A stretch of 52,061 nucleotides of DNA from positions 1 through 52,061 of the forward strand of contig CAZDXF010000004.1 in assembly GCA_964509605.1 (NCBI GenBank). The letters run 5' to 3'. Below are positions 1 to 51,975 of this stretch, one piece after another. The first letter of the stretch is position 1, and each line of letters starts with the position of its first letter. The notes beneath the pieces were generated by a model, which saw only the letters and a program-made list of their open reading frames with translations, ran no database searches and had not been told where the DNA came from. Source of the DNA: an uncultured Candidatus Saccharibacteria bacterium (GTDB lineage Bacteria; Patescibacteriota; Minisyncoccia; Phycocordibacterales; Zambryskibacteraceae). Made by a program: the position numbers and the translations under genes.

Positions 1-1250
<1,250 letters not shown>

Positions 1251-3763: not shown

Positions 3764-3855
3764 ATTTTTTAATTAATTTTTAATTTCTAATTTTTAATTT
3801 CCAACCAATGATTCATTAAAAATTCAATGAAAATTTAGAATTGAAAATTGATAAT

Positions 3856-24538: not shown

Positions 24539-25126
24539 TTATTGGCTCGCTTTTAATGCCTTATTGATACTTGAGACCAGATCCGTTTTATACCGCTCCA
24601 CCTCCTTTAGAAGCTCTCTTTCTATGGCGGAGTGAAAAATTTTAGGAGGAAATGGTTTTGGATCTAAAAAACCAAGATTGTGCAAAATTCTTGAAACAAT
24701 AACGATTTCCGCTAAATCAATTTCTTTTTCAGAAAAATTCTCGCTTTTTATCTCCTCCACGCCTTTTTCAACCACTTTAAAAAGTTCTTTGTTTTTTTCT
24801 TCGCCGTTCAACATCAAAAGAAGAATTGAAAATATCCTTCCAAAAAGAATTTCCTTCTTTCTGTTTTTTGGATTGAAATAAAGAAGATTCTTGGCTTCTG
24901 AAGCGCTCGTTATTTTCCAAGAATTTTTACCACGAACAAGAGAGCAATTTATCATAGAAAACGGATTGAGATGCGCTCGTAGCTTTGAAGAAACAACTCT
25001 GGCGCTTTTAGCAGATGTGTTTATGAGCCCCAAATCCTCGGTAAAAATTTTTAAAAACTTATCGGCTTCTCCTTGAGGAGAACTGCTCAGTACAAAACCT
25101 CTGGTCGTATAAACATGATATGCCAT
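24539..25126 (-). CDS. recO: DNA repair protein RecO (short form)
   Basis: N-terminal OB-fold pattern TRGFVLSSSPQGEADKFLKIFTEDLGLINTSAKSAR...LNPFS. Confidence 0.7.
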   Translation of the reverse strand: MAYHVYTTRGFVLSSSPQGEADKFLKIFTEDLGLINTSAKSARVVSSKLRAHLNPFSMINCSLVRGKNSWKITSASEAKNLLYFNPKNRKKEILFGRIFSILLLMLNGEEKNKELFKVVEKGVEEIKSENFSEKEIDLAEIVIVSRILHNLGFLDPKPFPPKIFHSAIERELLKEVERYKTDLVSSINKALKASQ

Positions 25127-28100
25127 TAGACAATTTCTATTTCAAACCAACTTTCATTTTCTTCCGACAAATCTGCTCCAAATTTAAAATCAGAAACTCC
25201 GCATATTTTTTTTATCATTGAAGAATTTTTTTCAAAAACATTTTTCATTTTAGGAGAAATACTTAAGGAAACATTTATTTTGTCTTTAGGGAGAAGACCT
25301 TTGAGCTTTCTCATCTCCTGCAAAGCTCTTATAAACTCCCTTATTTCCCCTTCTTCTTTCAGTTCTTCAGTAATTTGAGTATCCAAACTAACTTCGTCCT
25401 CCAATTTTTCAGAATAAACAACATCTTTCACATTTACTTCATCTTTTATAATTTCCAAAAAATCTTCATTTAGAGAAATTTTTCCTTTTTTTATTTCAAG
25501 CTTGCTTAAAGGTTGTCTTATTTTAATCCCAGATTTCGCCCTAGCTTCAAGTGCCAGAGAAACTAACCTTCTGGTCTCTCTCATACTACTCAAAGATTCT
25601 TGGCTGACCCTTGAAGCTCCTGGCCAATCTTCAAGATGAACGCTTACGAGCTCCCCTCCCTTGGTTATCCTTCTGTAGATGTCTTCTCCCCAAAATGGAG
25701 CAAATGGAGAAACTACCTTTGAAAATTCTTTTATTACAAACCCTAATGTAGAAATTGCATCTTCTTTATCCTTCTCGTCTTCTCCTTTAAATCTGTCTCT
25801 TGAGCGCCTCAAATACCACTGCGAGAGATCGGCTATAAAATCCCTGATTCCTCTGACTGATTCAAAAACTTTATAGGAATCCATATTTTTTGAAACTTTC
25901 AAAACAAGCTCATCAAAAAGAGAAAGTATCCAAACATCTAGGACATTAGAAACCTTTGGACGCTCTTTCGGAGCGTTTTCTTTTGAATACAGTTCGTAGA
26001 AAGACAAAACATTATTAAACAAATTAAAAACTTTTTTATTTACATCATCTACTGTTTTTTCATCAAAATTTTTTGCATCTCCGGGCTGGTTTACCGAATA
26101 CATCCAAAGTCTCAGAGGATCAACACCGTATTTATCTATCATCTCCCAAGGATCCACCGCATTGCCTTTTGATTTTGACATCTTCTGACCTTTTTCATCC
26201 AAAATATGGCCGAGACAAATTACATTTTTATAAGCTCTCCCTTTGCCAAATAAAATCCCTATAGCGTGAAGAGTATAAAACCACCCTCTAGTTTGATCTA
26301 TCGCTTCAGAAATAAAATCGGCTGGATAGGGAGAATTTTCTATTCTTTTTTTGAGATCTTTTTGGCTTAGAGAAATTTCTGAAGCGTTTTGAGAAAGAGA
26401 CATTGCCCCAGAATCAAACCAGACATCAACCACCTCTGGGACTCTTTTCAAAACATTTCCTGTCTTTTTTGATTTGATGACAACATCATCAACATAAGGG
26501 CGGTGGAGATCAAGTTCGAAATCAGAGTTTTTAGGAAGTGCTCTAAAATCAATCTCTTTAAATTCACCTGTTTTTACGATATCTTCTCCAGCATCTTCTT
26601 TCATTTTTATCGCACCGTTTTTACCAACCCCTAGTGAGACAGCCTCCATCATCCAGAGAGGGTATTCATGGCTTATTATGAGTATTTTTTTGTTGTTATA
26701 TTTTGAATCAATATCATATAAAAACTCCCCTACTCTTTTGCGAAGTTCTGAAAGATTCTCTCCACCTTCTGGTGCTTTTTCAAATTTTTCTGAAATAGAC
26801 GAAAAGAAACCGTGGTATTCATTTACATGCTTACCATTAAATATTCCTGTTTGTATTTCTTTTATCCTCTCATCAACAACAATATTTTTTTCATCCAAGC
26901 CTAAAATCTCTGCTACTTTTTTTGCAGTCTCTCTTGTGCGAATAAGAGGCGAAGTGAATATCAAATCTATTTTTTCTTTTTTGAGTTTCTTTGAAGCATC
27001 AAGGACTTGTTTCTCTCCCATCTCTGTAAGACTTGATGGGACCGAATCATCTCCGCTCACAATACAAGAAACATTTTTCTCGGCTTGACCGTGTCTCATT
27101 ATGAAAAAGGTGTTTCTTTTTTCTATTTTTTCTTTTAGTTCGCTTACTGAACCAATAACATCTGTCTCAGTGCCATCTTCCGAAATCCAAACTGGAAGCG
27201 GGGTGCCCCAATATCGCTCTCTAGAAAATGCCCAATCTTTTACATCAGAAAGCCATTCTCCAAATCTACCGTCTTTTATATGCTCTGGCTCCCAGTTTAT
27301 TTTCTGATTTTCAGAAACAAGATCCTCTCTTAATTGAGACATTTTTATATACCAAGAACTTCTGGCGTAATAAACCAAAGGGGTTTTGCATCTCCAACAA
27401 AAAGGATAGCTGTGCTCAAACTTTTCTTTCTTAAAAAGCAAATTCCTTCCAGCTAAATCTTTTATCACAAAAACAGCTGTGTCTTCGTCGTGAACAAATT
27501 TTCCAGAAAATTCTCCCGTGTTTGCAATAAAATGGCCCGAATCGTCTACCAAATGAAACTTTGGAAGACTGACTTTCGTGCCAAGCTCAAAATCGTCTTG
27601 CCCATACATTACCGCTGTATGCACAATCCCCGTACCATCTTCTGTAGTTACAAAATCAGCCGAATAAACTTTGTATGCGTTAGAAAGTTTCTCTTTTTGA
27701 GAATCAGAGATGTTTTGTGAAAGATATGGATAGAGTGGTTCGTATTCCATACCAACCATCTCGCTTCCTTTATGTTCTGCTATCACTTCATATTCATCAG
27801 TCAAAAGCTCGAGCTTATCCTTAGCTAAAACTAAAATTTCACCATTAACCTTGGCCTCTACATAAGTAATGTCTTTTCCTACGGCTAAGGCAACATTGCC
27901 CGGTAAAGTCCACGGGGTTGTCGTCCAAGCTACAAAATAAGCATCTGGGAAACCAATGATTTTAAATTTTACAAATACAGAAAGACTTTTTATTGTTTCA
28001 TAACCTTGAGCCAGCTCGTGAGAAGAAAGTCCTGTGCCACATCTCGGACACCAAGGAACCACCTTGTAGTCTTTGTAGAGAAGTTTTTTCTCATTTACAG

Positions 28101-28593
28101 TTTTTATAATCGCCCAAAGAGACTCCATATATCCGGAAGAATAAGTAATATAGGGACTCTCCATATCAACCCAAAAACCGATTCTTCTAGTAAAATCCTG
28201 CCATTCACTTAAATACTTCCAAACATTTTTTTTGCACTCTTCGTTGAATTTGGCAATGCTGTATTCTTCAATTTCTTTTTTTGATTTTATTCCCAACTGT
28301 TTCTCAACTTCAAGCTCCACTGGAAGTCCGTGCGTATCCCAACCAGCTTTTCTTTCCACACGAAAACCTCGCATCGTTTTGTAGCGAGGGATTGCGTCTT
28401 TAAACGCGCGAGCTTCTAGGTGGTGAATCCCCGGTCTGCCATTTGCAGTTGGAGGCCCTTCATAAAAAACAAAAGATCCCTCTGGAGATTTTTTCTCGAG
28501 GGTTTTTTTGAAAACTTCTTCCTTTTCCCAAAAAGACAGTATCTCTTCTTCTTTGAGGGCTAGTGGAGATTTATCTTCTCTCTCTGTGGCCAT
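25126..28593 (-). CDS. ileS: Isoleucyl-tRNA synthetase (type 2-like) carrying a nested histidine-phosphatase domain
   Basis: PPTANGRPGIHHLEAR (HIGH), WTTTPWTLPGN (editing domain), KMSKSKGN; 1155 aa. Confidence 0.95.
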   Translation of the reverse strand: MATEREDKSPLALKEEEILSFWEKEEVFKKTLEKKSPEGSFVFYEGPPTANGRPGIHHLEARAFKDAIPRYKTMRGFRVERKAGWDTHGLPVELEVEKQLGIKSKKEIEEYSIAKFNEECKKNVWKYLSEWQDFTRRIGFWVDMESPYITYSSGYMESLWAIIKTVNEKKLLYKDYKVVPWCPRCGTGLSSHELAQGYETIKSLSVFVKFKIIGFPDAYFVAWTTTPWTLPGNVALAVGKDITYVEAKVNGEILVLAKDKLELLTDEYEVIAEHKGSEMVGMEYEPLYPYLSQNISDSQKEKLSNAYKVYSADFVTTEDGTGIVHTAVMYGQDDFELGTKVSLPKFHLVDDSGHFIANTGEFSGKFVHDEDTAVFVIKDLAGRNLLFKKEKFEHSYPFCWRCKTPLVYYARSSWYIKMSQLREDLVSENQKINWEPEHIKDGRFGEWLSDVKDWAFSRERYWGTPLPVWISEDGTETDVIGSVSELKEKIEKRNTFFIMRHGQAEKNVSCIVSGDDSVPSSLTEMGEKQVLDASKKLKKEKIDLIFTSPLIRTRETAKKVAEILGLDEKNIVVDERIKEIQTGIFNGKHVNEYHGFFSSISEKFEKAPEGGENLSELRKRVGEFLYDIDSKYNNKKILIISHEYPLWMMEAVSLGVGKNGAIKMKEDAGEDIVKTGEFKEIDFRALPKNSDFELDLHRPYVDDVVIKSKKTGNVLKRVPEVVDVWFDSGAMSLSQNASEISLSQKDLKKRIENSPYPADFISEAIDQTRGWFYTLHAIGILFGKGRAYKNVICLGHILDEKGQKMSKSKGNAVDPWEMIDKYGVDPLRLWMYSVNQPGDAKNFDEKTVDDVNKKVFNLFNNVLSFYELYSKENAPKERPKVSNVLDVWILSLFDELVLKVSKNMDSYKVFESVRGIRDFIADLSQWYLRRSRDRFKGEDEKDKEDAISTLGFVIKEFSKVVSPFAPFWGEDIYRRITKGGELVSVHLEDWPGASRVSQESLSSMRETRRLVSLALEARAKSGIKIRQPLSKLEIKKGKISLNEDFLEIIKDEVNVKDVVYSEKLEDEVSLDTQITEELKEEGEIREFIRALQEMRKLKGLLPKDKINVSLSISPKMKNVFEKNSSMIKKICGVSDFKFGADLSEENESWFEIEIV
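26539..27117 (-). other. Histidine phosphatase (PGAM/CobC-like) domain inserted in IleRS (aa ~493-685)
   Basis: FFIMRHGQAEKN (RHG motif), SPLIRTRETA, and ILIISHEYPL (second catalytic His). The insert lies between ..WISEDGTETDVIGSVSELKEKIEK and DLHRPYVDD, segments that I recall being only ~10-15 aa apart in other type 2 IleRS. Confidence 0.75.
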
Positions 28594-28630
28594 ATATGTT
28601 CAATCGTATCACAAAGTTATAAAAACAAAG

Positions 28631-28660
28631 ACCCCCGCGACAACTTGTGTCGCGGGGTTT
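28631..28660 (-). terminator. GC-rich hairpin terminator of cassette 3
   Basis: ccccgcgac-aacttgt-gtcgcgggg with flanking T/A runs. Confidence 0.6.
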
Positions 28661-28742
28661 TCTTCACGCCGGGTTCCAATGACCGAAGCTTACGGGGTCC
28701 TCAGCCCTGTGCTTGGCAGTAAAACACGGCACGGCAATACGG

Positions 28743-29177
28743 TCAGGTCATCATCAGGTCGGAGGGGATGTCGACGAAGCGTCGACATCGGCCCTCCGGG
28801 TCCATGACCCGGGCGCCGGTACTCGGCAGGAGATCGCCGGAGCTCGTCATGAGCGCCGGGTACAGCATCGCAGTCGTTTCGTAAACGTGGTCCAGGGCCG
28901 TGAAGACGGCGCTGGAGGGATCGGCGTTATCGCCGAGGATGATGCTCGCGGGGCTCGCCCGCGAGAGCGCGTCGCCGGCCATGGCCGGGCTGAGGTCCAC
29001 GAAGATCGTCATCTCCATCGTGCTGGCGCCCGTCACGGGGGCCGGCAGGTCCTGCGTCGCGTTGTCGTACTCCATGACCTCATTGACCGAGGGCGGCGGA
29101 TCAGTCGCGTGGGCGACCGAGGCCGACATCGGCACCGCCACCAAGGTGGCGATGAGAGCCATCGTCCGAAGGCGCAT
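28743..29177 (-). CDS. Hypothetical secreted protein, 144 aa (GC-rich cassette 3, the most GC-rich)
   Basis: Signal peptide MRLRTMALIATLVAVPMSASVAHA and SD aaaggagtatgaATG. Hand counts: 28801-28860 is 43/60 G+C, against 24/60 for 28441-28500 inside ileS. Confidence 0.6.
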   Translation of the reverse strand: MRLRTMALIATLVAVPMSASVAHATDPPPSVNEVMEYDNATQDLPAPVTGASTMEMTIFVDLSPAMAGDALSRASPASIILGDNADPSSAVFTALDHVYETTAMLYPALMTSSGDLLPSTGARVMDPEGRCRRFVDIPSDLMMT

Positions 29178-29246
29178 TCATACTCCTTTCGGCTGGTTGT
29201 GAAGCCAATATGAGCGGATACTCACATTGGGTACATCTAACAATCC

Positions 29247-29275
29247 ATTATACACCCTTATTCACTTTTTGTCAA
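29247..29275 (-). promoter_or_regulatory. Consensus sigma70 promoter of cassette 3
   Basis: The minus strand reads TTGACA (29275-29270), a 17-nt spacer, then TATAAT (29252-29247). A second tttgacaaaaag copy lies 15 nt upstream. Confidence 0.6.
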
Positions 29276-29336
29276 ACAATATTTAGGCTTTTTGTCAAAA
29301 AGCTATATTTAAAGCCATTTTTAAGGCAATACCGCT

Positions 29337-31031
29337 CTACATCCTTTCTGGAGATTTAATCCCCAACACAAAAAGTCCATTTTTTAAAACTTGACCCACA
29401 GATTGTGCAACAGCTACCCTATGTCCTGATAAAGGATCACTAGAATCAACAATCTGGTTTTTTGCATAATAAGAATTGAAAAGACCAGCAACTTGAACAA
29501 GAAAAGAAATTATAGATTGGGGCGAAAGGTTTTTATAAGCTTCTTCAACAACTTCCGGGAAACGAACAATTCTTTTTTCAAGCTCTCCAACTTCTTCATT
29601 CATCAGTTTGGGCTCTACCTCCTCTTCTTCAGCTTTCTTCAAAACAGAATTTATTCTGGCATTTGTATATTGCAAGTATGGACCAGAGTCCCCTTCAAAA
29701 GAAACCGCTGAATCTAGATCAAAGATTGCATCCTTGCCAATATGCTGTTTCAAAATTGAATATTTCATCGCACCAACTGCAATGTTTGAAACTAGTTCCT
29801 CTTCTATATTAGTTTTTTCAGAAGAAGACATCTTTTCTTTTATTTTTCCACTCAAAGAATCCAACACAAACTCTGCCGTAATAACATCTCCGGTGCGAGA
29901 AGACATTTTGCCTGTTGGGAGGCGAAGCATACCGTGTCCAATGTGTCGCGTTTTTTGAGCTAAACTAGGAAAAATTTCTGAGAGAGCGGTGAGAAGAACT
30001 TCAAAATAAGAATTTACTTCGTTTCCAGTAATAACTATTGAAGAGTCGTACGGATACAGATCGTATTTTATTTTCGCAAGTCCCAACTCTTTTGCTTCAT
30101 AAGTAGGTATTCCATCTTTGTTTACAAAAACCCTTGTATGGAGTTTCTTGTCTCTTTTTTCACCTCTATAAACAATAGCCCCGTCGCTTTCTTCAAAAAT
30201 ATTAGGAGTATTTTCTTTTACAATATTTATTCCAAACTCCCCTGTCTCGCTTTCATAAAAATAAAAATCAAACTTTGTGCCAAGTTTTCTGTAAATTGAT
30301 TCAAAATATTCCAAAGTCAAAGTCCTACCTACCATATAAATCTGATTTATTTCAGGATCAGTCTCTTCATAAATTTTTTTATTAACCTCTATTACAAATT
30401 TTTTAAAATCTTCGTCCTCATCAAAAAGCTTTGATCCTTCGGCATAAGAAACCGCCACATCTTTTTCAGAAAACCAATCAGTCCCGGTCTTTATTTTATG
30501 GGCCACGGCTCTAGCCACATGGATCCCCTTGTCTCCTGAATAACACGCTCTTTTTACTTCCGCTCCATTCCACTCAATTATCCTAGAAATCGCTTCGCCT
30601 ATGGCATTGCTCATCGCATGCCCAATATGAAATTCTTTAAAAGGATTTGGATCCGTATATTCAACTATTGTTCTCAAACCAGAAAGATTTTGGTTTTTGC
30701 CATACGAATCGCCTTCTTTTAAAATTTCTTTCAAAGAAGATAGGAAAAAATCTTTATTTAATCTGAAATTTATAAACCCTGGTTTTGCCACCTCAACGCT
30801 TTCTACAAAATCTGGTTTTTCTTTCTCAAGCTCTTCTTTTATTTTCTCCGCCAATTCAAGTGGATTTGTTTTGAGAGTCTTGGCAGAAATCATTGCCACA
30901 TTTGTCGCATAATCTCCGTGAGAAATATCCTCTGGATGTTCCACAGCAAAATCCGCTTGTTCTATAGCAAGATTTTTCAATACTTTTTCAATACTTTTTC
31001 TTAAATCACCTGAAACCATTTGCTGTATCAT
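29337..31031 (-). CDS. argS: Arginyl-tRNA synthetase
   Basis: NPFKEFHIGHAMSNAIGEAISR (HIGH-type), a C-terminal DALR anticodon-binding region, and a terminal M; 564 aa. Confidence 0.9.
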   Translation of the reverse strand: MIQQMVSGDLRKSIEKVLKNLAIEQADFAVEHPEDISHGDYATNVAMISAKTLKTNPLELAEKIKEELEKEKPDFVESVEVAKPGFINFRLNKDFFLSSLKEILKEGDSYGKNQNLSGLRTIVEYTDPNPFKEFHIGHAMSNAIGEAISRIIEWNGAEVKRACYSGDKGIHVARAVAHKIKTGTDWFSEKDVAVSYAEGSKLFDEDEDFKKFVIEVNKKIYEETDPEINQIYMVGRTLTLEYFESIYRKLGTKFDFYFYESETGEFGINIVKENTPNIFEESDGAIVYRGEKRDKKLHTRVFVNKDGIPTYEAKELGLAKIKYDLYPYDSSIVITGNEVNSYFEVLLTALSEIFPSLAQKTRHIGHGMLRLPTGKMSSRTGDVITAEFVLDSLSGKIKEKMSSSEKTNIEEELVSNIAVGAMKYSILKQHIGKDAIFDLDSAVSFEGDSGPYLQYTNARINSVLKKAEEEEVEPKLMNEEVGELEKRIVRFPEVVEEAYKNLSPQSIISFLVQVAGLFNSYYAKNQIVDSSDPLSGHRVAVAQSVGQVLKNGLFVLGIKSPERM

Positions 31032-43191: not shown

Positions 43192-43264
43192 GGTGCCTAT
43201 CGGGAATCGAACCCGAATCGAGAGTTCCACAAACTCCAGTGTTAACCGTTACACCATAGGCACC
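43192..43264 (-). tRNA. tRNA-His (anticodon GTG) with encoded G-1; CCA not encoded
   Basis: Reverse complement: GGTGCCTATGGTGTAACGGTTAACACTGGAGTTTGTGGAACTCTCGATTCGGGTTCGATTCCCGATAGGCACCC. Folded by hand as a cloverleaf with anticodon loop TTGTGGA. Confidence 0.85.
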
Positions 43265-43295
43265 ATACAAACATTTTACCGTCTGGCAAAAATGC

Positions 43296-43380
43296 TGGTG
43301 CGCGGGAGAGGACTTGAACCTCCACGCCTTACGGCCTACGAACCTCAATCGTAGATGGCTACCAATTACATCACCCGCGC
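43296..43380 (-). tRNA. tRNA-Leu (anticodon GAG), long variable arm, CCA encoded
   Basis: Reverse complement: GCGCGGGTGATGTAATTGGTAGCCATCTACGATTGAGGTTCGTAGGCCGTAAGGCGTGGAGGTTCAAGTCCTCTCCCGCGCACCA. Confidence 0.85.
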
Positions 43381-43381
43381 A

Positions 43382-44050
43382 TTAGAAATGCTCACCCACT
43401 ATAGCTAAAGCCCTTCTCATTTTCAACTTTTTCCTTTTCAGATATATTCCTTTTTTATTTTCGTACATTTTTCTTAGTAAGAAAATAGACTCTTTTTTGG
43501 CATATTTAAGTTGAATGACAGATCTTTTCTTGTTATTTGTTATATGACCCTTAATTTTTAATCTTTTAAATAGCTCATTTCTAATCCAAGATATGTTTTC
43601 TTTGCTTGCGGAAACAAATTCTGTATAAAACATAAAACTAGATCTCCAACGCAAATCCCAATACGAATAGAATGTTCCGTCTCCATCAAACAGTCCCCTC
43701 AAAAAGGAAAAGAAATACTTTTTAGGTATATCAACTTCTCCAATCACTTTAGACTTTGCTGGCATTAGTCCAATTCCAAGAAGAAATTTATAAAAGACAA
43801 CATCTCCAAACTGGATTCTGTTGCTCTTTTTTGAACCTTTTCCAGAAGTGGTTGTTCCAACCTTAATCCCTCTAATTTTAAAAGCTTTTAAAAAATTTTT
43901 TATTTGGTCATCTTCTTTAGAAACAAAAACTATATGCCTGCCGTCTGGAGAAAGATTTCCATCACTAACTAAAAGACCTATGCCATATGCAAAATCATCT
44001 GACCATTTGGTCTTTACCAATCTTTTTGGTTTTCTGCCCGTATTCCCCAT
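43382..44050 (-). CDS. Free-standing LAGLIDADG homing endonuclease (two-motif, monomeric type)
   Basis: Motifs GIGLLVSDGNL and LRGLFDGDGTF, ~100 aa apart; 222 aa. The stop lies 1 nt from the tRNA-Leu 5' end. Confidence 0.85.
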   Translation of the reverse strand: MGNTGRKPKRLVKTKWSDDFAYGIGLLVSDGNLSPDGRHIVFVSKEDDQIKNFLKAFKIRGIKVGTTTSGKGSKKSNRIQFGDVVFYKFLLGIGLMPAKSKVIGEVDIPKKYFFSFLRGLFDGDGTFYSYWDLRWRSSFMFYTEFVSASKENISWIRNELFKRLKIKGHITNNKKRSVIQLKYAKKESIFLLRKMYENKKGIYLKRKKLKMRRALAIVGEHF

Positions 44051-44144
44051 TACCTTATTCTATCCACACCACACACAGACCTCAAGGTATTAGCGTCTAC
44101 CAAATTTAATAAAATATAAAATAATAAATAATACGAAAATAAAA

Positions 44145-44171
44145 AAGACCCTTAATTTACCGAAGGGTCTT
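44145..44171 (-). terminator. Rho-independent terminator after rplS
   Basis: aagaccctt-aatttaccg-aagggtctt followed by a T run. Confidence 0.7.
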
Positions 44172-44173
44172 TT

Positions 44174-44680
44174 TTATTCTTTAACTTCAGCTTCTTCTGG
44201 TTTTGCTTCCTCTTGAGTTTCTACGCTAGTGTTTTCGTTGTTTTCAGAATTTTCGGCTTCTTTCACTTCTTCAGGAGTTTCTTCAATTTCTGTTGCTTCT
44301 TCTCCGATATTCACAAATTGAGTATTTCTCATTTGTCTCTTTATTTCCTTGGCCGCTTTCTTTCTGATGTGATAGAGCTTTGACCTTCTGACTTTTGACC
44401 TCTTTGAAATTTCAATCCTGTCTATCATCGGAGAGTATAGGGGAAATATTTTTTCTACTCCAACCCCGCTAGCAACTCTGCGAACAGTAAAAGTTGCCCC
44501 CGCTTCGCTTCCATGTTTTACCGCCAAAACAAGCCCTTCAAACATTTGAAGTCTTGTTTTGCCTTTTTCCTGAATTTTTTGCCAAACCTTAACAGTGTCT
44601 CCTGACCTTATGCCGAGATTTTTTCTAGCTCCCATATCAACAGGAGAAATTTTTATTTTTTTTGCCACAGCTGTTTTCAT
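44174..44680 (-). CDS. rplS: 50S ribosomal protein L19 with a ~45-aa acidic C-terminal extension
   Basis: IRSGDTVKVWQKIQEKGKTRLQMFEGLVLAVKHGSEAGATFTVRRVASGVGVEKIFPLYSP. Confidence 0.9.
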   Translation of the reverse strand: MKTAVAKKIKISPVDMGARKNLGIRSGDTVKVWQKIQEKGKTRLQMFEGLVLAVKHGSEAGATFTVRRVASGVGVEKIFPLYSPMIDRIEISKRSKVRRSKLYHIRKKAAKEIKRQMRNTQFVNIGEEATEIEETPEEVKEAENSENNENTSVETQEEAKPEEAEVKE

Positions 44681-44711
44681 TTTTAGAGAAAGCTAGTCTA
44701 ACACAACAATT

Positions 44712-45449
44712 TTAATCCGGCAAATTTTTAAATTGCTCAATCGCCTCTTCAAAATCTGGGCTATATGGAGCTTCTACTGAAACAAAATTTCCATCTAAAT
44801 TTTTAAATTTTAATTTTTTTGCATGGAGTGCCAATCTTTCCAAACCCAAAGCTTTTGGTCTTTTTGGAGCATAAAGAGAGTCTCCAACAAGCGGATGATT
44901 TATAGCTTTGAAATGGGCCCTTATTTGATGGGTCCTTCCTGTCTTTGGACTTGCTTCAACAAAAGTAATTTCTTTTTTTCTTTCTAAAACCTTGAAATTT
45001 GTGATTGCATCTCTCAACTCTCCCCTCGCCCCTCTTTGTGCAGACCAGAGTCTAAAATCTTTTTTGCTTCTGCCCATCGGTCTGTCTATGACTCCTTCGT
45101 CTTCTTTAATATTCCCCCAAACAAATGCGTGATAAGTTTTTTCAACTTCATGATTTTGAAATTGTTTTTTCAAACACTCAAAAGCGTTTTGGTTTTTTAC
45201 CAAAATTAAAGCTCCGGATGTTTCTCTGTCTATCCTGTGCACCACCCCCGATCGAACAATTTCTTTTCCATCCGAGAGAGTGATGTGCTCCCCCACACCT
45301 TTGGACTTCGGATACTTTGATTCAAACCAAGAAGAAAGACTCTCTTCTTCTCTTTTTCCGTCCGGATGAACTATTAAACCAGCTGGTTTGTTTATAACCA
45401 AAAGGTTTTCGTCTTCGTAAAGTATTTTTATTTTATTTAATAAAGACAT
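44712..45449 (-). CDS. RluA-family pseudouridine synthase
   Basis: VVHRIDRETSGALIL (catalytic Asp) and GRTHQIRAH. Confidence 0.87.
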   Translation of the reverse strand: MSLLNKIKILYEDENLLVINKPAGLIVHPDGKREEESLSSWFESKYPKSKGVGEHITLSDGKEIVRSGVVHRIDRETSGALILVKNQNAFECLKKQFQNHEVEKTYHAFVWGNIKEDEGVIDRPMGRSKKDFRLWSAQRGARGELRDAITNFKVLERKKEITFVEASPKTGRTHQIRAHFKAINHPLVGDSLYAPKRPKALGLERLALHAKKLKFKNLDGNFVSVEAPYSPDFEEAIEQFKNLPD

Positions 45450-45450
45450 G

Positions 45451-45533
45451 TGCCGAGGAGGAGACTTGAACTCCTACCACCTAAGGTGACGGCGCTCTGA
45501 ACGCCGCGTGTCTACCAATTCCACCACCTCGGC
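45451..45533 (-). tRNA. tRNA-Leu (anticodon CAG), long variable arm
   Basis: Reverse complement: GCCGAGGTGGTGGAATTGGTAGACACGCGGCGTTCAGAGCGCCGTCACCTTAGGTGGTAGGAGTTCAAGTCTCCTCCTCGGCA. Confidence 0.85.
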
Positions 45534-45547
45534 AAGTCTTCTTTTTG

Positions 45548-45620
45548 TGCGCGATACAGGACTCGAACCTATGACCTTCCCGGTGTAAACGGGTTGCTCT
45601 ACCAACTGAGCTAATCGCGC
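45548..45620 (-). tRNA. tRNA-Val (anticodon TAC)
   Basis: Reverse complement: GCGCGATTAGCTCAGTTGGTAGAGCAACCCGTTTACACCGGGAAGGTCATAGGTTCGAGTCCTGTATCGCGCA. Confidence 0.85.
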
Positions 45621-45725
45621 ATACTAACTAAAGTTATAAACAAATATTCCTAATGTAAATGGGCCTCCATATCTACCAAGACAGCATGATCGTACGTGAC
45701 GGGCATTAAAACAAATGCTCCGGGC

Positions 45726-45821
45726 GCAGTATTCTTGAATTAGTCCGAACGCATTTCGCCGCCTGCGGCGGCGAGGAAGTTCCCCCGCGAAAATTCGGAA
45801 AGGCGGCGGAGCCGCACCGCT
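45726..45821. repeat. IR-1 left arm (96 bp, GC-rich)
   Basis: Perfect reverse complement of 46565-46660, checked base by base. Confidence 0.9.
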
Positions 45822-45866
45822 GACAATTTCAAGTTTTTCTTTGGCGGCAGAATTCTTTGAAAAATT

Positions 45867-46397
45867 TTAGAGTCCTTGATTCTTAGATTGGCGAGCGCGC
45901 TGAATTAGCTCGTCTCGAAGTTGTTCTGCAACATCCATAGAAACTGCAGGCAATCTTCCCTCTGCACTGCCACCCATTACGCCATAACGTGATACGGTTG
46001 CACTTGCTCCGGCCGTTTGGATGTTGAGGTCAGATAGTCCAAGGATGCGAGCCAAAATACCACGGTTGATGTCAACGTTTTGAATTCGGTCGTAAGGAAC
46101 AGTGACATATTTTTTATAGATAACTCCTGATTCCTTACGAAAACCCGTGTCAAGAAGTTCGTAGCGATAATAATGGTAAGTGAGTTTAGCCCACACAAAA
46201 CACAAAACAAGAAAAGCTGGGATGATAAGCCACAACCAATTCAAAAAGCCAAACGAAAACTCACTGCCGTTATTTAAGTCGTCAAAACCACCTAAAAATG
46301 CTGAACCCCAAATACTCAAAAATATTATCGGTATGAACGACCGTAAAACAAAACTAAAGAAGAAAAACCAGACGGACTTTGGATCAAGTTGTTTCAT
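45867..46397 (-). CDS. Membrane protein with a bacterial PH (bPH_2 / YdbS-YdbT-like) domain, enclosed by IR-1
   Basis: Two N-terminal TM helices, then YRYELLDTGFRKESGVIYKKYVTVPYDRIQNVDINRGILARILGLSDLNIQTAG. Confidence 0.7.
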   Translation of the reverse strand: MKQLDPKSVWFFFFSFVLRSFIPIIFLSIWGSAFLGGFDDLNNGSEFSFGFLNWLWLIIPAFLVLCFVWAKLTYHYYRYELLDTGFRKESGVIYKKYVTVPYDRIQNVDINRGILARILGLSDLNIQTAGASATVSRYGVMGGSAEGRLPAVSMDVAEQLRDELIQRARQSKNQGL

Positions 46398-46564
46398 ATT
46401 TTATGAATTTAATGATTTTAATAGAAAAGCCGACCGCCCTTTCTTGAAATTATTATACCACATATTTGTCTATATTATGATTAAAAGGATTAAAAAATTT
46501 TCTTCCCCCAAAATTAAAATATGGTTCGAGCCGATGTTTTTCTCCGGGTTCTTTTGCGGTTTTG

Positions 46565-46660
46565 AGCGGTGCGGCTCCGCCGCCTTTCCGAATTTTCGCG
46601 GGGGAACTTCCTCGCCGCCGCAGGCGGCGAAATGCGTTCGGACTAATTCAAGAATACTGC
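46565..46660. repeat. IR-1 right arm (96 bp)
   Basis: Perfect inverted copy of 45726-45821. It overlaps IR-2L by 2 nt. Confidence 0.9.
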
Positions 46661-46759
46661 ACCAGACAGGAAAATACAAGTTTGAAAGGTTCGCCTCGCT
46701 TCGCTCGGCGACTAATTTGTATTCAATTTTGGGGGTAAAAACGAATTCTCGATTTCGCA
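46659..46759. repeat. IR-2 left arm (101 bp): inverted copy of the recombinase 3' end plus the tRNA-Arg 3' tip
   Basis: 97/101 identical to the reverse complement of 48163-48263. The 4 mismatches cluster at the distal end. Confidence 0.9.
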
Positions 46760-46802
46760 TTTTTGGGGAAGAAAATTTTTTAATCCTTAATTTTCAAAAC
46801 TT

Positions 46803-48272
46803 ATGAAATATATACTATACGCTCGTAAGAGCACAGAAGAAGATGATAGGCAGGTATTGAGTATTGAAGCGCAACTCGTAGAGTTGCAAGAGTATGCCGC
46901 CAAAGAAAACCTTGAAATTGTAGCTTCCTTTCAGGAAGCCAAAACCGCAAAAGAACCCGGTCGAATGAAATTCGCAGAAATGTTGTCATTGATTGAGAGA
47001 GGAAAGGCAGACGGCATTATTTCGTGGCACCCCGATCGATTAGCTCGCAATTCTGTAGACGGAGGCAAGATAATTCATTTCGTAGATCGCGGCTTGATTA
47101 AGTCCCTCAAATTTCCCACCTTTTGGTTTGAAGCAACCCCACAAGGTTTATTCATGCTCAATATCGCTTTCGGCCAAAGTAAATATTTTGTGGATAATTT
47201 GCGAGAGAATGTGAAAAGAGGTCTGCGACAGAAAATCCGTAATGGGGTATGGCCTGGCTGGGCTCCAGTGGGATACCTCAACAATGCTAAAACTCGCGGT
47301 ATTGATGTTGATACGGAGAAATCCACGAAAGTCAGAAAATTGTTTGAAATGTACGCCACCGGAATATATACGCTTCATTCTCTCGCAAATTGGTGCAAGG
47401 AAAAGGGTTTACGAGGCAATCTAGGCAAAGAAATAGCGTTAAGCAACGTGCAAAGTATTCTACAAAATATTTTCTACATCGGGCTAATGAAATATGGTGG
47501 GGAAATTTTTGAGGGAAAACACGAGCCGTTAATTTCAAAGAAACTTTTTGATAAGTGTCAAGAAGTGATGAGTAAGCGTGGAAAATTCCATTATGTGAGA
47601 AAAAAAGATTTTGCTTTTCTTGGCCTCTTGAAATGTGCTTCGTGTGGTTGTTCAATAACCGCAGAGAAACAGAAAGGTCATAACTATTATCGTTGTACGA
47701 AAAAGAAGGGCATTTGCCAAGAAAAGCATTATCTCCGCGAAGAAGCACTAACCGAGCAAATCACTTCTTATCTCCAAAAAGTTTCTTTGTCGAGCCAAGA
47801 TACCGAGAAAGTTTTGGCGGCGTTGGATAGCGAGCAAGATAAAGCGATAAAGGACACACAATCCAAAGTTGAGATTTTGAAAGAGCAGTTATCACAAATT
47901 GAGACAAAACTCCAAAAACTTCTCGATGTCTATTTAGCAGACGCTTTATCCACAGAAGAATACGCCGCCAAAAAACAGAGTTTGCTGTCTCAAAAAGTTT
48001 CGTTATCTGAAAAAATCAACGACTTTGAGACAAAAGGGTTGTCTTGGCTCGAACCGGCTCGTGAGTTCGTAAAGTCCTTAAATCAAGCCGCAAATCTGCT
48101 TTCCTCTCCCAATCCGACTGCAATGACAACATTTCTGAAAAACATCGGCTCGAACCATATTTTGCGAAACCGCCAATTCGTTTTTGCCCCCAAAATTGAA
48201 TACAAATTAGTCGCCGAGCGAAGCGAGGCGAACCTTTCAAACTTGTATTTTCCTGTCTGGTGCTCTCGGTAG
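46803..48272 (+). CDS. Large serine recombinase (resolvase catalytic domain, recombinase domain, zinc ribbon, coiled-coil)
   Basis: YARKSTEEDDRQVLSIEAQ (catalytic Ser), SWHPDRLARN, and CASCGCSITAEKQKGHNYYRC. The last 15 nt overlap the tRNA-Arg 3' end. Confidence 0.9.
   Translation: MKYILYARKSTEEDDRQVLSIEAQLVELQEYAAKENLEIVASFQEAKTAKEPGRMKFAEMLSLIERGKADGIISWHPDRLARNSVDGGKIIHFVDRGLIKSLKFPTFWFEATPQGLFMLNIAFGQSKYFVDNLRENVKRGLRQKIRNGVWPGWAPVGYLNNAKTRGIDVDTEKSTKVRKLFEMYATGIYTLHSLANWCKEKGLRGNLGKEIALSNVQSILQNIFYIGLMKYGGEIFEGKHEPLISKKLFDKCQEVMSKRGKFHYVRKKDFAFLGLLKCASCGCSITAEKQKGHNYYRCTKKKGICQEKHYLREEALTEQITSYLQKVSLSSQDTEKVLAALDSEQDKAIKDTQSKVEILKEQLSQIETKLQKLLDVYLADALSTEEYAAKKQSLLSQKVSLSEKINDFETKGLSWLEPAREFVKSLNQAANLLSSPNPTAMTTFLKNIGSNHILRNRQFVFAPKIEYKLVAERSEANLSNLYFPVWCSR
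48163..48263. repeat. IR-2 right arm (within the recombinase 3' end, reaching into the tRNA-Arg acceptor/CCA)
   Basis: See IR-2 left arm. Confidence 0.9.
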
Positions 48273-48332
48273 GAATCGAACCTACATTGGGAGATTAGAA
48301 GTCTCCAGTTCTATCCATTGAACTACGAGAGC
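48258..48332 (-). tRNA. tRNA-Arg (anticodon TCT), CCA encoded
   Basis: Reverse complement: GCTCTCGTAGTTCAATGGATAGAACTGGAGACTTCTAATCTCCCAATGTAGGTTCGATTCCTACCGAGAGCACCA. Confidence 0.88.
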
Positions 48333-48355
48333 ATTGCAGAAAGACTATACAGATA

Positions 48356-48691
48356 TTAAAGCGCTGGGTCAACGCTCCATTTTTGAGAATCAGCAGAATC
48401 ATTCAATTTTTCTGCCTTGCCATCAAAAAAAGAAATTATTTTTTGTAAATCCTTCAAGCTCACTGCCTCCTTTTCAGATTCAGATGAGTCGTATCGGCTA
48501 AAAGCTTCTCCTTCGCTGACCTGTATAAATAAATAGAAATTGAAAACGGCAACTGCCGAAATCACTATAAAAAACAAAGCTAAAACAAGCTTCCAGTCGT
48601 GAGCCGCTTTCAAACTCAAATTTTGATACTCCTTTTTATGAAAAGAAGGTTTTTTAAATAATTTTTTTATGTCTATGTTTTTTAGATTCAT
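48356..48691 (-). CDS. Hypothetical single-pass membrane protein, last gene of the pilMNO cluster
   Basis: 111 aa with one TM helix, translationally coupled to the upstream gene. Confidence 0.5.
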   Translation of the reverse strand: MNLKNIDIKKLFKKPSFHKKEYQNLSLKAAHDWKLVLALFFIVISAVAVFNFYLFIQVSEGEAFSRYDSSESEKEAVSLKDLQKIISFFDGKAEKLNDSADSQKWSVDPAL

Positions 48692-48692
48692 T

Positions 48693-49259
48693 TTATTTAA
48701 TTTTCAAAACCGAAAATTCCACATTACCTTTCCACGAAGATGGACCCGAGCTATTTTCGAAAAATAAATCCTCTTGAGTTTTTTCAGAGACAATTACCAC
48801 ATTTTTAATTAAAACTCTATAAGGAAGATTTTCAATAGAAGAAACAAAGCTCATAACACGACCCCAAGACCCGACAACCTCCACCCTCATATTCAACAGC
48901 TCTTTAAAATCATCCTTGTTTCTTGTTTCGTCTTCAACTGAAACATAGGCAACATTCAAATCTACTCCCAAATTTCTTGCCAAATCTTCTATATTTTCTA
49001 TGAATTTTGGAGCTTGATCCCTTTGAACAAAATAGCTGTCTAGTTTTGAAATTGAATCAGCGTTTTCATTTAAGATAAGCTTTGTCTTGAGCAGAAATTC
49101 ATCTTTTTTTAGCTCCCTGTCGGCGTCATTTAGCATGGAGGAAATGTGCTCATTTTTTATTTTTACCAAAAAGAACATTCCGGCGTAAATTGCAATCACA
49201 ACAATGTTGAGGATTAAGATGGTTATAAATATTTTTTTTACAGAAGTCGGATTTTTCAT
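48693..49259 (-). CDS. pilO: PilO-like type IV pilus assembly protein
   Basis: An N-terminal TM helix, a coiled-coil, and a C-terminal ..VEVVGSWGRVMSFVSSIENLPYRVLIKNVVI pattern, positioned after pilN. Confidence 0.55.
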   Translation of the reverse strand: MKNPTSVKKIFITILILNIVVIAIYAGMFFLVKIKNEHISSMLNDADRELKKDEFLLKTKLILNENADSISKLDSYFVQRDQAPKFIENIEDLARNLGVDLNVAYVSVEDETRNKDDFKELLNMRVEVVGSWGRVMSFVSSIENLPYRVLIKNVVIVSEKTQEDLFFENSSGPSSWKGNVEFSVLKIK

Positions 49260-49269
49260 GAATTTAAAA

Positions 49270-49809
49270 TCAGGACTCTACGCTTATCCTTATAGAAAAA
49301 GTTGCGTTTCTTTCTTTGGCAAAACTTGAAACGGGTATATCAACTTTAGAAAATATTTCTTCCTCTTCCAGAGACCGCACAAATTCTGAAAGACTGTCTC
49401 TGTTTAAAGCCACTCCGCTTAAGACCACCTCTTTTTTGTTGCCCTCTCCAACACTAAAACTCATAGAATTTATTCTTATTGAAGATGTCTTCTTATCCAA
49501 AACTTTTTTAAAGAGAACGCTTGGCTGGTTTAAATCTTGTCCGATCAACAAAGATTGAATTTTCAAATTTGTCTGAACTAGACGAGCATTAAGCTCATCA
49601 GCTTCTTTAAGAATGGTGGACATTCTCACAGACTCTATTCTTTCTGAAATCTCATTGTCTTTTGCGTTAGAAATCAGATAGGAAGGCAATAAAAATAAGA
49701 TGGCAACAAAAACAATGGCAAAAAAGAAAGTTAAAACAACTATGAGTAGACGGAGTCTGTACTCTTGGAAAATTCTCTTTTTCTCTCTGCTTGGAAGTAA
49801 ATTAAACAT
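49270..49809 (-). CDS. pilN: PilN-like type IV pilus assembly protein
   Basis: The N-terminus FNLLPSREKK followed by a TM helix is the PilN hallmark. Confidence 0.62.
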   Translation of the reverse strand: MFNLLPSREKKRIFQEYRLRLLIVVLTFFFAIVFVAILFLLPSYLISNAKDNEISERIESVRMSTILKEADELNARLVQTNLKIQSLLIGQDLNQPSVLFKKVLDKKTSSIRINSMSFSVGEGNKKEVVLSGVALNRDSLSEFVRSLEEEEIFSKVDIPVSSFAKERNATFSIRISVES

Positions 49810-49812
49810 TTT

Positions 49813-50892: not shown

Positions 50893-50933
50893 TTATACAA
50901 CAATTTATTTAGAGAGTTATTTAAAAACCGCGA

Positions 50934-51263
50934 TTATTTCACAAGAGAACCGGGCTCAATCTGATCTTTTACCTCAAGAAATGAAAAATTTTGATCGTCG
51001 CTTGCGCATAAAATCATTCCTTGGCTCTCCAAGCCAAAAATCGTTCTTGGTTCAAGATTAAAAACAAAGGGATATTTTTTGCCAACAATTTCTTGCGGAG
51101 AGTTTAAATATTTTTTTATACCAGAAACTATCTGCCTTTCTCCACTCTCGCCAAAAGACACTCGGAGTTTCAAGAGTTTTTCGGACCCCTCCACCTCCTC
51201 TGCAGAAATCACTTCTCCAATCCTAATTTCTATCTTTTTAAAATCTTCAAATGAAATAGACAT
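50934..51263 (-). CDS. Stand-alone tRNA-binding domain protein (CsaA/Trbp111/MetRS-C-terminal-like)
   Basis: FKKIEIRIGEVISAEEVEGSEKLLKLRVSFG...IVSGIKKY...LEPRTIFGLESQGMILCA. Confidence 0.82.
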   Translation of the reverse strand: MSISFEDFKKIEIRIGEVISAEEVEGSEKLLKLRVSFGESGERQIVSGIKKYLNSPQEIVGKKYPFVFNLEPRTIFGLESQGMILCASDDQNFSFLEVKDQIEPGSLVK

Positions 51264-51264
51264 T

Positions 51265-51657: not shown

Positions 51658-51719
51658 TTGATTATTCTACTACAATAAGGTCTGTTTGAGAGAAATCTTC
51701 GTTCTGGTATTATTCATAC

Positions 51720-51962: not shown

Positions 51963-51975
51963 TTTCAAACAATAT

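Follow-up and report, generated by a model that had tools for sequence, protein, structure and literature searches.

The window (the whole stretch of DNA that was analysed, 52,061 nucleotides) carries an ileS gene whose product is a functional-looking type-2 isoleucyl-tRNA synthetase (IleRS), with charging predicted from its sequence and structural model. A histidine-phosphatase (HP) domain is nested inside it. The gene is flanked by argS and a recO-like gene in the same orientation, and the start codon of the latter shares one base with the ileS stop codon. The features of the locus are as follows.

24539..25126, minus strand: recO-like gene directly downstream of ileS (PF11967 RecO_N, E 1.6e-13)
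25126..28593, minus strand: ileS, type-2 isoleucyl-tRNA synthetase with nested phosphatase domain; a single unbroken ORF of 1155 aa
25126..26526, minus strand: IleRS C-terminal part, comprising the second half of the knuckle (cysteines lost), the second half of the catalytic fold with KMSKS, the anticodon-binding domain and the type-2 C-terminal domains (aligns with 8c8w residues 482-906; PF08264, PF19302)
26170..26184, minus strand: KMSKS motif, aa 804-808 (KMSKS in 117/120 homologues)
26527..27117, minus strand: inserted HP domain, aa 493-689 (PF00300; boundaries from the insert-less relative L074 and 8c8w)
27091..27093, minus strand: His501 codon CAC, predicted phospho-accepting nucleophile of the RHG motif (R500 and H501 invariant in 120/120 homologues)
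27118..28593, minus strand: IleRS N-terminal part, comprising the first half of the catalytic fold, the CP1/editing domain and CP2, ending with the first half of what was the zinc knuckle (aligns with 8c8w residues 13-475)
28420..28431, minus strand: class-I signature motif GIHH (aa 55-58) in place of HxGH (GIHH in 107/120 homologues)
29337..31031, minus strand: argS, directly upstream of ileS, the conserved operon partner of the phosphatase (order argS-HP-ileS or an argS::HP fusion in relatives)

The GC-rich spacer yielded no Rfam RNA and no Pfam domain, and no record of its exact protein exists.

The ileS product scored 865.6 bits against the NCBIfam ileS equivalog TIGR00392 (cut-off 621.4), in a match broken into two stretches, and 394.7 bits against the valS model, below the cut-off of 612.1. 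Its Pfam domains are PF00133, PF08264 and PF19302. The top structural match is the P. megaterium IleRS2 (8c8u/8c8w; target-normalised TM 0.77-0.80), and 8c8w is also the closest solved IleRS2 by sequence. The editing motifs WTTTPWTLPGN and GTGIVHTA..D are conserved in the IleRS part, with WTTTPWT and GTG.VH..D invariant in the homologue alignment, and the first zinc site (C182/C185/C399/C402) is conserved as well. The original prediction, that a complete phosphatase domain interrupts an otherwise intact synthetase, was correct as to the 1155-aa continuous frame, the KMSKS motif and the editing domain. It erred in calling the HIGH motif intact, since the class-I signature is the non-canonical GIHH; among the 119 homologues aligning at this position, the other 12 carry ALHH, GVHH or GLHH. 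G/AXHH is a documented natural variant of IleRS2 that leads to mupirocin hyper-resistance (Brkic et al. 2023, PMC10485003). From the motif alone, the GIHH-bearing enzymes are predicted to be intrinsically hyper-resistant to mupirocin-type inhibitors. The G/AXHH type-2 enzymes of that study have the GIHH motif, KMSKS, the editing domain and the type-2 C-terminal domains in common with the window protein, but only a zinc knuckle of ~35 residues where the latter has a 197-aa phosphatase.

The insert lies between YWGTPLPVW and DVWFDSG, in the last connective-peptide element of IleRS. In other IleRS2 this site is the CxxC...CxC zinc knuckle, presumably 'CP3'. Alignment with 8c8w places query residue 487 at residue 475 and query residue 690 at residue 482, which leaves about 196 extra residues. 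In L074, a relative that naturally lacks the insert, 6 residues stand in place of the 197 of the window protein, about 191 being extra. The resulting coordinates are essentially equal to those first proposed for the domain (26539-27117). PF00300 (His_Phos_1) matches aa 497-660 with an E value of 8.2e-30 and 104.3 bits (cut-off 21.7), covering profile positions 2-165 of 194. All of the phosphatase motifs quoted in the original prediction (RHG, the pocket Arg and the second His) are found in the insert, as FFIMRHGQAEKN, SPLIRTRETA and ILIISHEY, and the catalytic core consists of R500, H501, G502, N507, R552, E612 and H642. In a full-length AlphaFold2 model (mean pLDDT 91.3, pTM 0.83) the insert forms a compact, independent alpha/beta domain with a pLDDT of 89-97. 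Modelled by itself, it is a small domain (~197 aa) with a short cap (pLDDT 95.9, pTM 0.92). Foldseek aligned it to PspA, HFP, Rv2419c, PhoE and CobC with E values of 2e-14 to 1e-11 and TM scores of 0.68-0.78. Profile and model together confirm a predicted complete PhoE/PspA/CobC-like histidine phosphatase nested inside IleRS.

The same architecture occurs in all 120 closest homologues, from independent assemblies, and in 70 of 80 GTDB loci, which were collected with a single query spanning the insert junction; its hosts are Paceibacteria-type Patescibacteria. These results bear out the view that this is an in-frame domain insertion, not a terminal fusion, frameshift or misassembly. Across the 120 homologues R500, H501, N507, R552 and H642 never vary and E612 hardly does, and the full R-H...R...E...H set is present in 119 of 121 HP domain instances from all architectures. 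Relative to an 81%-identical relative, dN/dS was 0.065 for the HP domain and 0.087 for the remaining protein, which points to strong purifying selection on the nested domain. A non-catalytic structural stand-in for the zinc knuckle, or an artefact (a chimeric assembly, two genes or an intein-like element), is hinted at by the loss of all four knuckle cysteines from the window protein and by the C-terminus of the insert, ...LP(H/K)N, which bears a superficial likeness to that of an intein. Such a reading is extremely improbable and has been largely refuted, given the invariant catalytic residues and the purifying selection. Some homologues retain the cysteines and the insert together, the GC content of the insert is close to that of its flanks, and the continuous ORF is reproduced across hundreds of independent assemblies. 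An intein was rejected specifically: no Hint/intein Pfam family matches the insert, the position after ...HN is variable where a conserved C/S/T would be needed, and the insert in its entirety adopts a canonical HP fold.

HMM score, catalytic residues and fold place the insert in the branch-1 histidine phosphatase superfamily, as far as can be judged from profiles and models. Narrower assignments were tried and rejected. A cofactor-dependent phosphoglycerate mutase is not supported by dPGM_arch (91-94 bits against a cut-off of 225), TIGR01258 (24 against 81.7) or GpmB (52-58 against 261). "PGAM-like" is a description of the fold only, and the notion of a 'missing glycolytic mutase' falls below the model cut-offs. 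The insert likewise misses the equivalog cut-offs of CobC (64-69 bits against 162.9) and PspA (75-80 against 350). It shares its fold, catalytic residues and short cap with the small (~200 aa) branch-1 phosphatases PspA (4ij5/4ij6), HFP (9mmh, riboflavin-pathway), Rv2419c GpgP, PhoE (1h2e) and CobC (6e4b), but at 20-30% identity and with every NCBIfam equivalog cut-off missed widely. All of those act on metabolites as stand-alone proteins, and no case is known of one sitting inside a synthetase or being linked to it. The second-best NCBIfam match, the Rv2228c-type RNase H/CobC-like acid phosphatase (PRK07238), likewise combines a nucleic-acid enzyme with a branch-1 phosphatase; its arrangement is a terminal fusion, in contrast to the nested insert, which scores 89-92 bits against a cut-off of 326 and is a non-member.

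Conserved residues and model alike suggest that the nested HP is very likely catalytically active. His501 would be the phosphoryl acceptor, with R500, R552, H642 and N507 holding the phosphoryl group and E612 protonating the leaving group. Branch 1 includes enzymes that dephosphorylate proteins (SixA, PGAM5 and Sts-1), and in GltX and TrpS the KMSKS region is a target of Hip kinases. With these precedents, and with a domain of only about 197 aa and a short cap, the HP could be imagined to act in cis, stripping an inhibitory phosphate from a partner or from the synthetase itself, for instance at the KMSKS serine, and so countering HipA/HipT-type kinases. We consider this very improbable: the insert scores 35-39 bits against the SixA equivalog (cut-off 74.5), and kinase genes were not found in the neighbourhoods examined. 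Both the insert and its free-standing homologue matched 0 PADLOC families, and an anti-phage defence protein was rejected. Conservation across the class is atypical for a conflict function; being near-universal, it is a better fit to a housekeeping role than to a conflict (anti-toxin) role.

In more distant relatives the phosphatase is a free-standing gene of ~190 aa between argS and ileS, and its products are 36-46% identical to the insert. This gene follows argS immediately, or immediately precedes an ileS that lacks the insert, or both, in L069, L081, L082/83, L084, L088, L089/90, L091, L096 and L100. In 47 loci both the end of argS and the start of ileS are visible; the HP is inside ileS in 37, upstream in nine, in both places in none and in neither in one. 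Within argS-HP-ileS-recO the HP is therefore either upstream of or inside ileS, never both, in 46/47 loci. The order argS-(HP)-ileS-recO is the same in L082, L084, L086, L089 and L074, and in L085 the HP is fused to the C-terminus of ArgRS (argS::HP, P0224). The free-standing gene belongs to the same family as the nested domain and, on sequence comparison, is probably its orthologue. We hold the anatomy and orthology of the nested HP with high confidence. A neighbor-joining tree of the IleRS core contains a large clade with the HP inside, within which L074, which has no HP, and L069 and L100, both in the upstream state, are nested; the tree of the HP domain is star-like. Because the trees fix neither the direction nor the number of relocations, only mutual exclusivity is claimed, and no single event. 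L074 is a clean deletion beside a sister lineage with the insert, and the HP is absent from its locus; the domain is thus dispensable for the IleRS fold.

The nested architecture itself was already known; newly described here are the free-standing gene between argS and ileS, its mutually exclusive placement upstream of or inside ileS, and the occurrence of the module on ArgRS, TsaC and ValRS. Kantor et al. (2013, mBio, PMC3812714) reported in one descriptive sentence that an SR1 IleRS has a Nudix and two PGAM domains. This is a candidate-phyla-radiation IleRS with in-frame PGAM/His_Phos domains, like the window protein, and P0208, a multi-HP IleRS of our set, resembles the description. The window protein differs from it in having a single HP at one site, no Nudix, a Paceibacteria-type clade as its host and GIHH as its signature, and the sentence does not give the distribution, origin or function of the PGAM domains. 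It was the sole match in the searchable literature on phosphatase domains in IleRS or aminoacyl-tRNA synthetases, and phosphatase domains go unmentioned in a 2026 survey of how the domains of IleRS evolved. The original prediction knew of no synthetase with an internal phosphatase; the feature is in fact lineage-wide and has this precedent.

IleRS is not the only host. In Gracilibacteria/Peregrinibacteria, 70 of the 119 closest homologues of the ValRS P0136 carry HP domains between WWGHxIP and DxWFSS, which is the homologous connective-peptide site. Complete ValRS proteins have 1-3 copies and the truncated P0136 has four, and the nucleophile His is kept in 81 of 83 copies. The IleRS P0208 carries its HPs elsewhere in the protein, at three further sites. 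An in-frame TAA was observed in two multi-HP genes, which may be read as a split gene or pseudogene, as read-through or as recoding. IleRS also hosts GNAT, Nudix and transposase-like domains; in P0269 HP and GNAT occur together, with the GNAT at a different site, after DSGSMPY. NCBIfam NF040702 (ileS_w_GNAT) is a precedent for an extra enzymatic domain on IleRS, but the window protein has no GNAT Pfam match and is not a member of that family (295 bits against a cut-off of 1999). Fusions of HP to TsaC (TsaC/Sua5) form four clusters, and patescibacterial TsaC is also fused to Ogt, TruB, MPG, 2H, Nudix and GNAT.

Since TsaC joins so many unrelated small enzymes, fusion is weak evidence for functional coupling in these genomes. 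The HP may then be an active but ordinary small-molecule phosphatase (for a sugar phosphate, phosphoserine, a nucleotide or a cofactor intermediate), a neighbour of argS and ileS captured into the permissive loops or termini of large adjoining genes in streamlined genomes, with a chemistry unrelated to aminoacylation. The structures and HMMs closest to it are those of ~200-aa phosphatases acting on metabolites, IleRS accommodates GNAT, Nudix and transposase-like domains as well, L074 has lost the HP cleanly, and recO, in the same operon, is unrelated to translation, which also speaks against coupling to it. We nevertheless judge this explanation somewhat unlikely. Simple read-through from a neighbour could not produce an internal in-frame insertion, and the HP has been captured independently at the homologous ValRS site in another class, at three further IleRS sites and in ArgRS. 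Tandem arrays of two or three copies in complete ValRS, and of four in the truncated P0136, are hard to square with a generic metabolic enzyme. The apparently repeated and independent capture by class-Ia synthetases at a homologous loop argues for selection on proximity and not for accident.

IleRS, ValRS, ArgRS and TsaC, the four HP hosts, all use ATP and release PPi. The HP could accordingly be pictured as clearing by-products, hydrolysing AMP, PPi or some other terminal phosphoanhydride, or the nucleotide side products that Nudix cleavage leaves, and thereby pulling the reaction forward or sanitising it locally; the Nudix and PGAM domains of the SR1 IleRS suggest a two-step breakdown of a nucleoside-diphosphate-X compound. 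To our knowledge, however, no branch-1 histidine phosphatase is a PPase, there is no evident reason why class-Ia enzymes alone should need one, and the homologue alignment has no extra conserved basic residues outside the generic family motifs. By-product clearing is very unlikely on these grounds. The original prediction had also offered a nucleotide by-product (Ap4A or pNp) as a speculative substrate; within that suggestion Ap4A is an unlikely direct substrate for the HP fold, because it is no phosphomonoester.

As to coupling with the synthetase, we give even chances to the explanation as a whole: an active phosphomonoesterase tethered to class-Ia synthetases and acting on the terminal phosphate of a nucleotide-type ligand that these enzymes handle. 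That the nested HP is functionally coupled to aminoacylation or tRNA is, from the pattern of its hosts, rather probable. The covalent tether would ensure that HP is made 1:1 with the synthetase and works beside it, and IleRS would carry out charging itself with no need for the HP domain. The likeliest case would be removal, before charging, of a 2'/3'-(pyro)phosphate that blocks the acceptor end of the tRNA, and the HP would then give the enzyme a third site, for 'repair', in addition to those for synthesis and editing. Blocked ends would come from RNA damage, cyclic-phosphate processing or toxin action. The tRNA end as substrate is the weakest step of the explanation, and we consider it unlikely. 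The nearest relatives are small-molecule phosphatases, none at family cut-off, and accordingly give no specific pointer to RNA; TsaC, also fused to HP, has no role at the CCA end. That IleRS, ValRS and ArgRS of Patescibacteria have repeatedly gained a third site that heals tRNA acceptor ends with a blocking 2'/3'-phosphate or pyrophosphate before charging is, in this full form, distinctly doubtful. A parallel in concept is the CP1 editing domain of IleRS, ValRS and LeuRS, which like the HP is a hydrolytic domain in a class-Ia connective peptide, and which serves its own enzyme; the HP would add one more nested catalytic module. CP1 is an ancient domain of universal occurrence with a known substrate, whereas the HP is restricted to certain lineages, is open to loss and also occurs as a separate gene.

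Aminoacyl-tRNA synthetases are among the best-studied enzymes, and here a second kind of hydrolytic domain appears to have been captured repeatedly by their class-Ia members, spread over a huge uncultivated bacterial radiation with its catalytic centre intact and, as its substitution pattern suggests, under purifying selection. The separate gene, the terminal fusion, the nested domain and the deleted state are all preserved across living lineages. Were the HP only a metabolic enzyme, this would still be an unusually clear natural case of a neighbouring gene moved into the middle of an essential one. Should the substrates of the HP be tRNA ends or nucleotides bound to the synthetase, it would represent a new quality-control or repair step in tRNA charging; with end healing, tRNA end-repair would be built into the charging enzyme itself, much like the editing domain but acting before aminoacylation.

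The isoleucyl-tRNA synthetase (IleRS) gene of the window was found to be one continuous reading frame that houses a complete histidine-phosphatase (HP) domain. The features concerned, with the relative used for comparison, are as follows:

25126..28593, minus strand: ileS, uninterrupted reading frame of 1155 aa
26527..27117, minus strand: HP domain, aa 493-689 of IleRS
28420..28431, within ileS: class-I signature GIHH (aa 55-58 of IleRS), replacing HxGH
Locus L074 (DCWL01000006, Patescibacteria UBA2163): insert-less IleRS, 64% identical to that of the window

The synthetase part of the protein is a type-2 IleRS. It scores 865.6 bits against the NCBIfam isoleucine--tRNA ligase equivalog (cut-off 621.4), the match being split into two stretches, and the Pfam scan places tRNA-synt_1 on either side of His_Phos_1, with Anticodon_1 and DUF5915, the type-2 C-terminal domain, further downstream. 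An AlphaFold2 model (mean pLDDT 91.3, pTM 0.83) matches IleRS2 structures with target-normalised TM values of 0.77-0.80. KMSKS is intact, as are the editing-domain motifs and the first (hinge) zinc site. The original prediction had listed an intact HIGH motif as well, but GIHH stands in its place. GIHH recurs in 107 of 120 homologues, and the other 12 of the 119 that align there have ALHH, GVHH or GLHH, giving a G/AxHH signature in 119/120. Brkic et al. (2023) described the G/AXHH swap as a natural IleRS2 variant that increases the mupirocin Ki by as much as about 1000-fold at small catalytic cost (PMC10485003). From these signatures, the whole clade is predicted to be intrinsically resistant to mupirocin.

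In an alignment to 8c8w (P. megaterium IleRS2, the closest solved IleRS), query residues 14-487 fall on residues 13-475 and 690-1112 on 482-906. The jump from query 487 to 690 leaves about 196 extra residues at a single point. L074 has six residues where the window protein has 197, and the boundaries taken from this second alignment agree essentially exactly with those first predicted. Together with the continuous frame and the Pfam order, the two alignments bear out the proposed in-frame, nested domain. The insertion follows YWGTPLPVW and precedes DVWFDSG, inside the connective-peptide region; residues 169-512 of P. megaterium IleRS2 lie outside the catalytic core (PMC10485003). By sequence order, the element is probably the last of the connective peptide, named 'CP3' by Chen et al. 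(2024). The corresponding element of T. thermophilus, P. megaterium and some homologues is a CxxC...CxC zinc knuckle, the four cysteines of which are kept by several insert-bearing homologues and are gone from the window protein. GC content is 0.33-0.35 in the insert and 0.37-0.40 in the flanks, close enough to give no sign of recent foreign DNA.

The insert is a compact branch-1 histidine phosphatase. PF00300 matches aa 497-660 (E 8.2e-30), and the domain modelled alone folds on its own with pLDDT 95.9 and pTM 0.92. Its nearest solved structures (TM 0.68-0.78, 20-30% identity) are phosphatases of ~200 aa: the phosphoserine phosphatase PspA, the riboflavin-pathway HFP, Rv2419c, PhoE and CobC. 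The insert reached none of the curated NCBIfam subfamily cut-offs: dPGM_arch, 91-94 bits (cut-off 225); RNase H/acid phosphatase, 89-92 (326); PspA, 75-80 (350); CobC, 64-69 (162.9); SixA, 35-39 (74.5). The earlier term 'PGAM-like' is therefore apt as a description of the fold, but not as a mutase assignment. The catalytic set, part of which had been recognized from the sequence, is complete (R500-H501-G502, N507, R552, E612, H642) and is invariant or nearly so among 120 homologues, despite only 32-55% identity over the whole insert. Against the 81%-identical IleRS of close relative L086, dN/dS was 0.065 in the insert and 0.087 elsewhere in the protein, values that are rough because dS is near saturation. 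This pattern suggests an active enzyme under selection and does not fit a spacer.

The original prediction knew of no aminoacyl-tRNA synthetase with an internal phosphatase; the nested domain is real, but it is widespread. Each of the 120 best database homologues (55-81% identity, 1104-1202 aa) has both PF00300 and PF00133. In public records they are named either 'isoleucine--tRNA ligase' or 'class I tRNA ligase family protein', and they come from sources including Zambryskibacteria, Taylorbacteria, Parcubacteria, Paceibacterota and 'Patescibacteria group'. GTDB species representatives were scanned with a junction-spanning query, and 70 of the best 80 loci carry the nested HP. Their titles include Sung-, Jorgensen-, Giovannoni-, Nealson-, Wildermuth-, Yanofsky-, Nomurabacteria and Minisyncoccia, and many were deposited as 'uncultured Candidatus Saccharibacteria'. 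HP was neither nested nor upstream in eight of the 80: six outgroup loci (Bacteroidota, Chlorobiota or Ignavibacteria), L073 (Uhrbacteria) and L074. The last groups with insert-bearing L014 in a neighbour-joining tree and matches its flanks almost residue by residue, with HP cleanly missing; its argS-ileS gap is about 7 nt, and no HP was found anywhere along the 6.4-kb locus. L074 is thus a clean secondary loss, and IleRS needs no HP for folding or function.

The insert alone was searched against 1.8 billion cluster representatives, which returned 1190 proteins at E<=1e-10. Most of the best 150 are IleRS, either whole or truncated at a contig border. Of the roughly 45 short proteins in this set (about 160-220 aa), about 30 appear complete and free-standing, 32-43% identical to the insert, and the others are probably contig-cut IleRS pieces. 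Every free-standing copy with readable context immediately follows argS, immediately precedes an insert-less ileS, or does both, and recO usually comes next:

Free-standing HP loci: L069, L081, L082/83, L084, L088, L089/90, L091, L096, L100

The genes abut at L069, L082/83 and L089/90, with spacers of just 1-8 nt. The window (argS, ileS with nested HP, recO) and L086 share this synteny. At the 47 loci where the argS end and ileS start are both visible, HP is inside ileS in 37, upstream in nine (seven distinct), absent in one and never in both places. The argS-ileS gap of the upstream state, 547-616 nt, is the size of the HP gene, except at L081 and L084, where other genes intervene. From this either/or placement and gap size, we conclude that one and the same gene occupies either the nested position or the operon position. 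Nealsonbacteria-labelled genomes occur in both states (L035 inside, L100 upstream), and rough IleRS and HP trees do not fix the number of relocations.

Elsewhere in the window, the argS-ileS spacer has a foreign-looking composition. This and further features of the window are:

28594..29336: argS-ileS spacer, a GC-rich island (67%, against 40% for the window)
28743..29177, minus strand: spacer reading frame of 144 aa with a signal-peptide-like N-terminus
1..1249 and 43192..52060: partial LSU rRNA at the window start and six tRNA genes (Rfam)

The spacer frame has its own TTGACA/TATAAT-like promoter, ribosome-binding site and hairpin-plus-T-run terminator. The L086 spacer is homologous (about 70% nucleotide identity by BLASTN), and indels between the two inside the frame are in multiples of three, which suggests coding. 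Pfam and Rfam gave no match to the spacer or its frame, and no record of the exact protein was found.

The HP module has been captured by other hosts. P0224 is an ArgRS with a C-terminally fused HP in the same syntenic block as the window's, and TsaC/Sua5-HP fusions form four clusters. In the IleRS P0208, HP occupies three sites that differ from that of the window protein (behind the knuckle's second Cys pair, after DSGSMPY and about 65 residues past KMSKS), and the IleRS P0269 combines HP with GNAT and a transposase-like domain. P0136 is a ValRS (NCBIfam); 70 of its 119 closest homologues, mostly named Gracilibacteria or Peregrinibacteria, have one to three HP copies between WWGHxIP and DxWFSS, and some have an additional copy between QWF and WWGH. 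The segment from WWGHxIP to DxWFSS is homologous to the IleRS insertion site. IleRS and ValRS are ancient paralogues, so insertions into the homologous loop must be independent; exchange between the paralogues is a less likely source. R-H...R...E...H is kept in 119/121 HP instances across all non-ValRS architectures and in most ValRS-embedded HPs, where multi-copy proteins usually have at least one intact copy.

Several side observations concern these hosts. The transposase-like domain of P0269 (aa 326-472; PF01797 E 7e-12; NF047646 81.3 bits, cut-off 80) is of the IS200-like/REP-associated tyrosine type and lies in frame within the editing-domain region. Among homologues of the TsaC-HP fusion P0227 (P0271-P0389), the C-terminal partner of Patescibacterial TsaC/Sua5 is mostly Ogt-like PF01035; further partners are TruB, 2H/LigT phosphoesterase, Nudix, GNAT, methylpurine glycosylase and HP, and HP, Nudix and GNAT also occur inside IleRS. 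The unrelated multi-HP genes for P0208 (L092/L093, nt 4972-4974 of L092) and P0136 (L094/L095, nt 3849-3851) each have an in-frame TAA within the last HP copy, with clear HP homology continuing past it. Contigs from independent samples agree at 100% identity, and the only other complete genes they carry use TAG and TGA as stops. Possible causes are a split gene or pseudogene, read-through and recoding.

The window gene is another case of an architecture already noticed yet uncharacterised: one sentence in Kantor et al. (2013; PMC3812714) mentions such an IleRS, in SR1 and with a Nudix domain. No other relevant text was found in the searchable literature, and neither 'phosphatase' nor 'Patescibacteria' occurs in a 2026 preprint on IleRS domain evolution. 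The operon origin of the nested HP, its either/or placement, the ArgRS, TsaC and ValRS hosts and the conservation of the catalytic centre appear to be undescribed there.

An artefact and a purely structural role are all but excluded. The main rival to a synthetase-linked function is hitch-hiking, in which an ordinary housekeeping phosphatase passed from the operon into neighbouring genes; we regard it as possible but not probable. The nearest HP relatives are metabolite phosphatases and HP can be lost, as in L074, both of which argue against a terminal-phosphate substrate; moreover, Patescibacterial TsaC has many unrelated small enzymes as fusion partners, making fusion alone weak evidence. 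Product clearing and protein-phosphatase action in cis are given less weight. The candidate substrate put forward here, tentatively and at rather low probability, is a terminal phosphate that would block charging, carried by the tRNA acceptor end or by a nucleotide in the synthetic site. It is favoured because tRNA/ATP chemistry is common to the hosts, the preferred site lies in the connective peptide that also houses the editing domain, HP copies are tandemly expanded, and the Nudix domain of the SR1 IleRS suggests stepwise removal of a pyrophosphate-type group. We observe a complete HP centre under purifying selection in an otherwise normal IleRS, an operon tie to a free-standing gene and a module that class-Ia synthetases have captured repeatedly. 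We infer that HP is an active phosphomonoesterase with His501 as phospho-acceptor, and that selection favours keeping it stoichiometric with, and beside, these synthetases.
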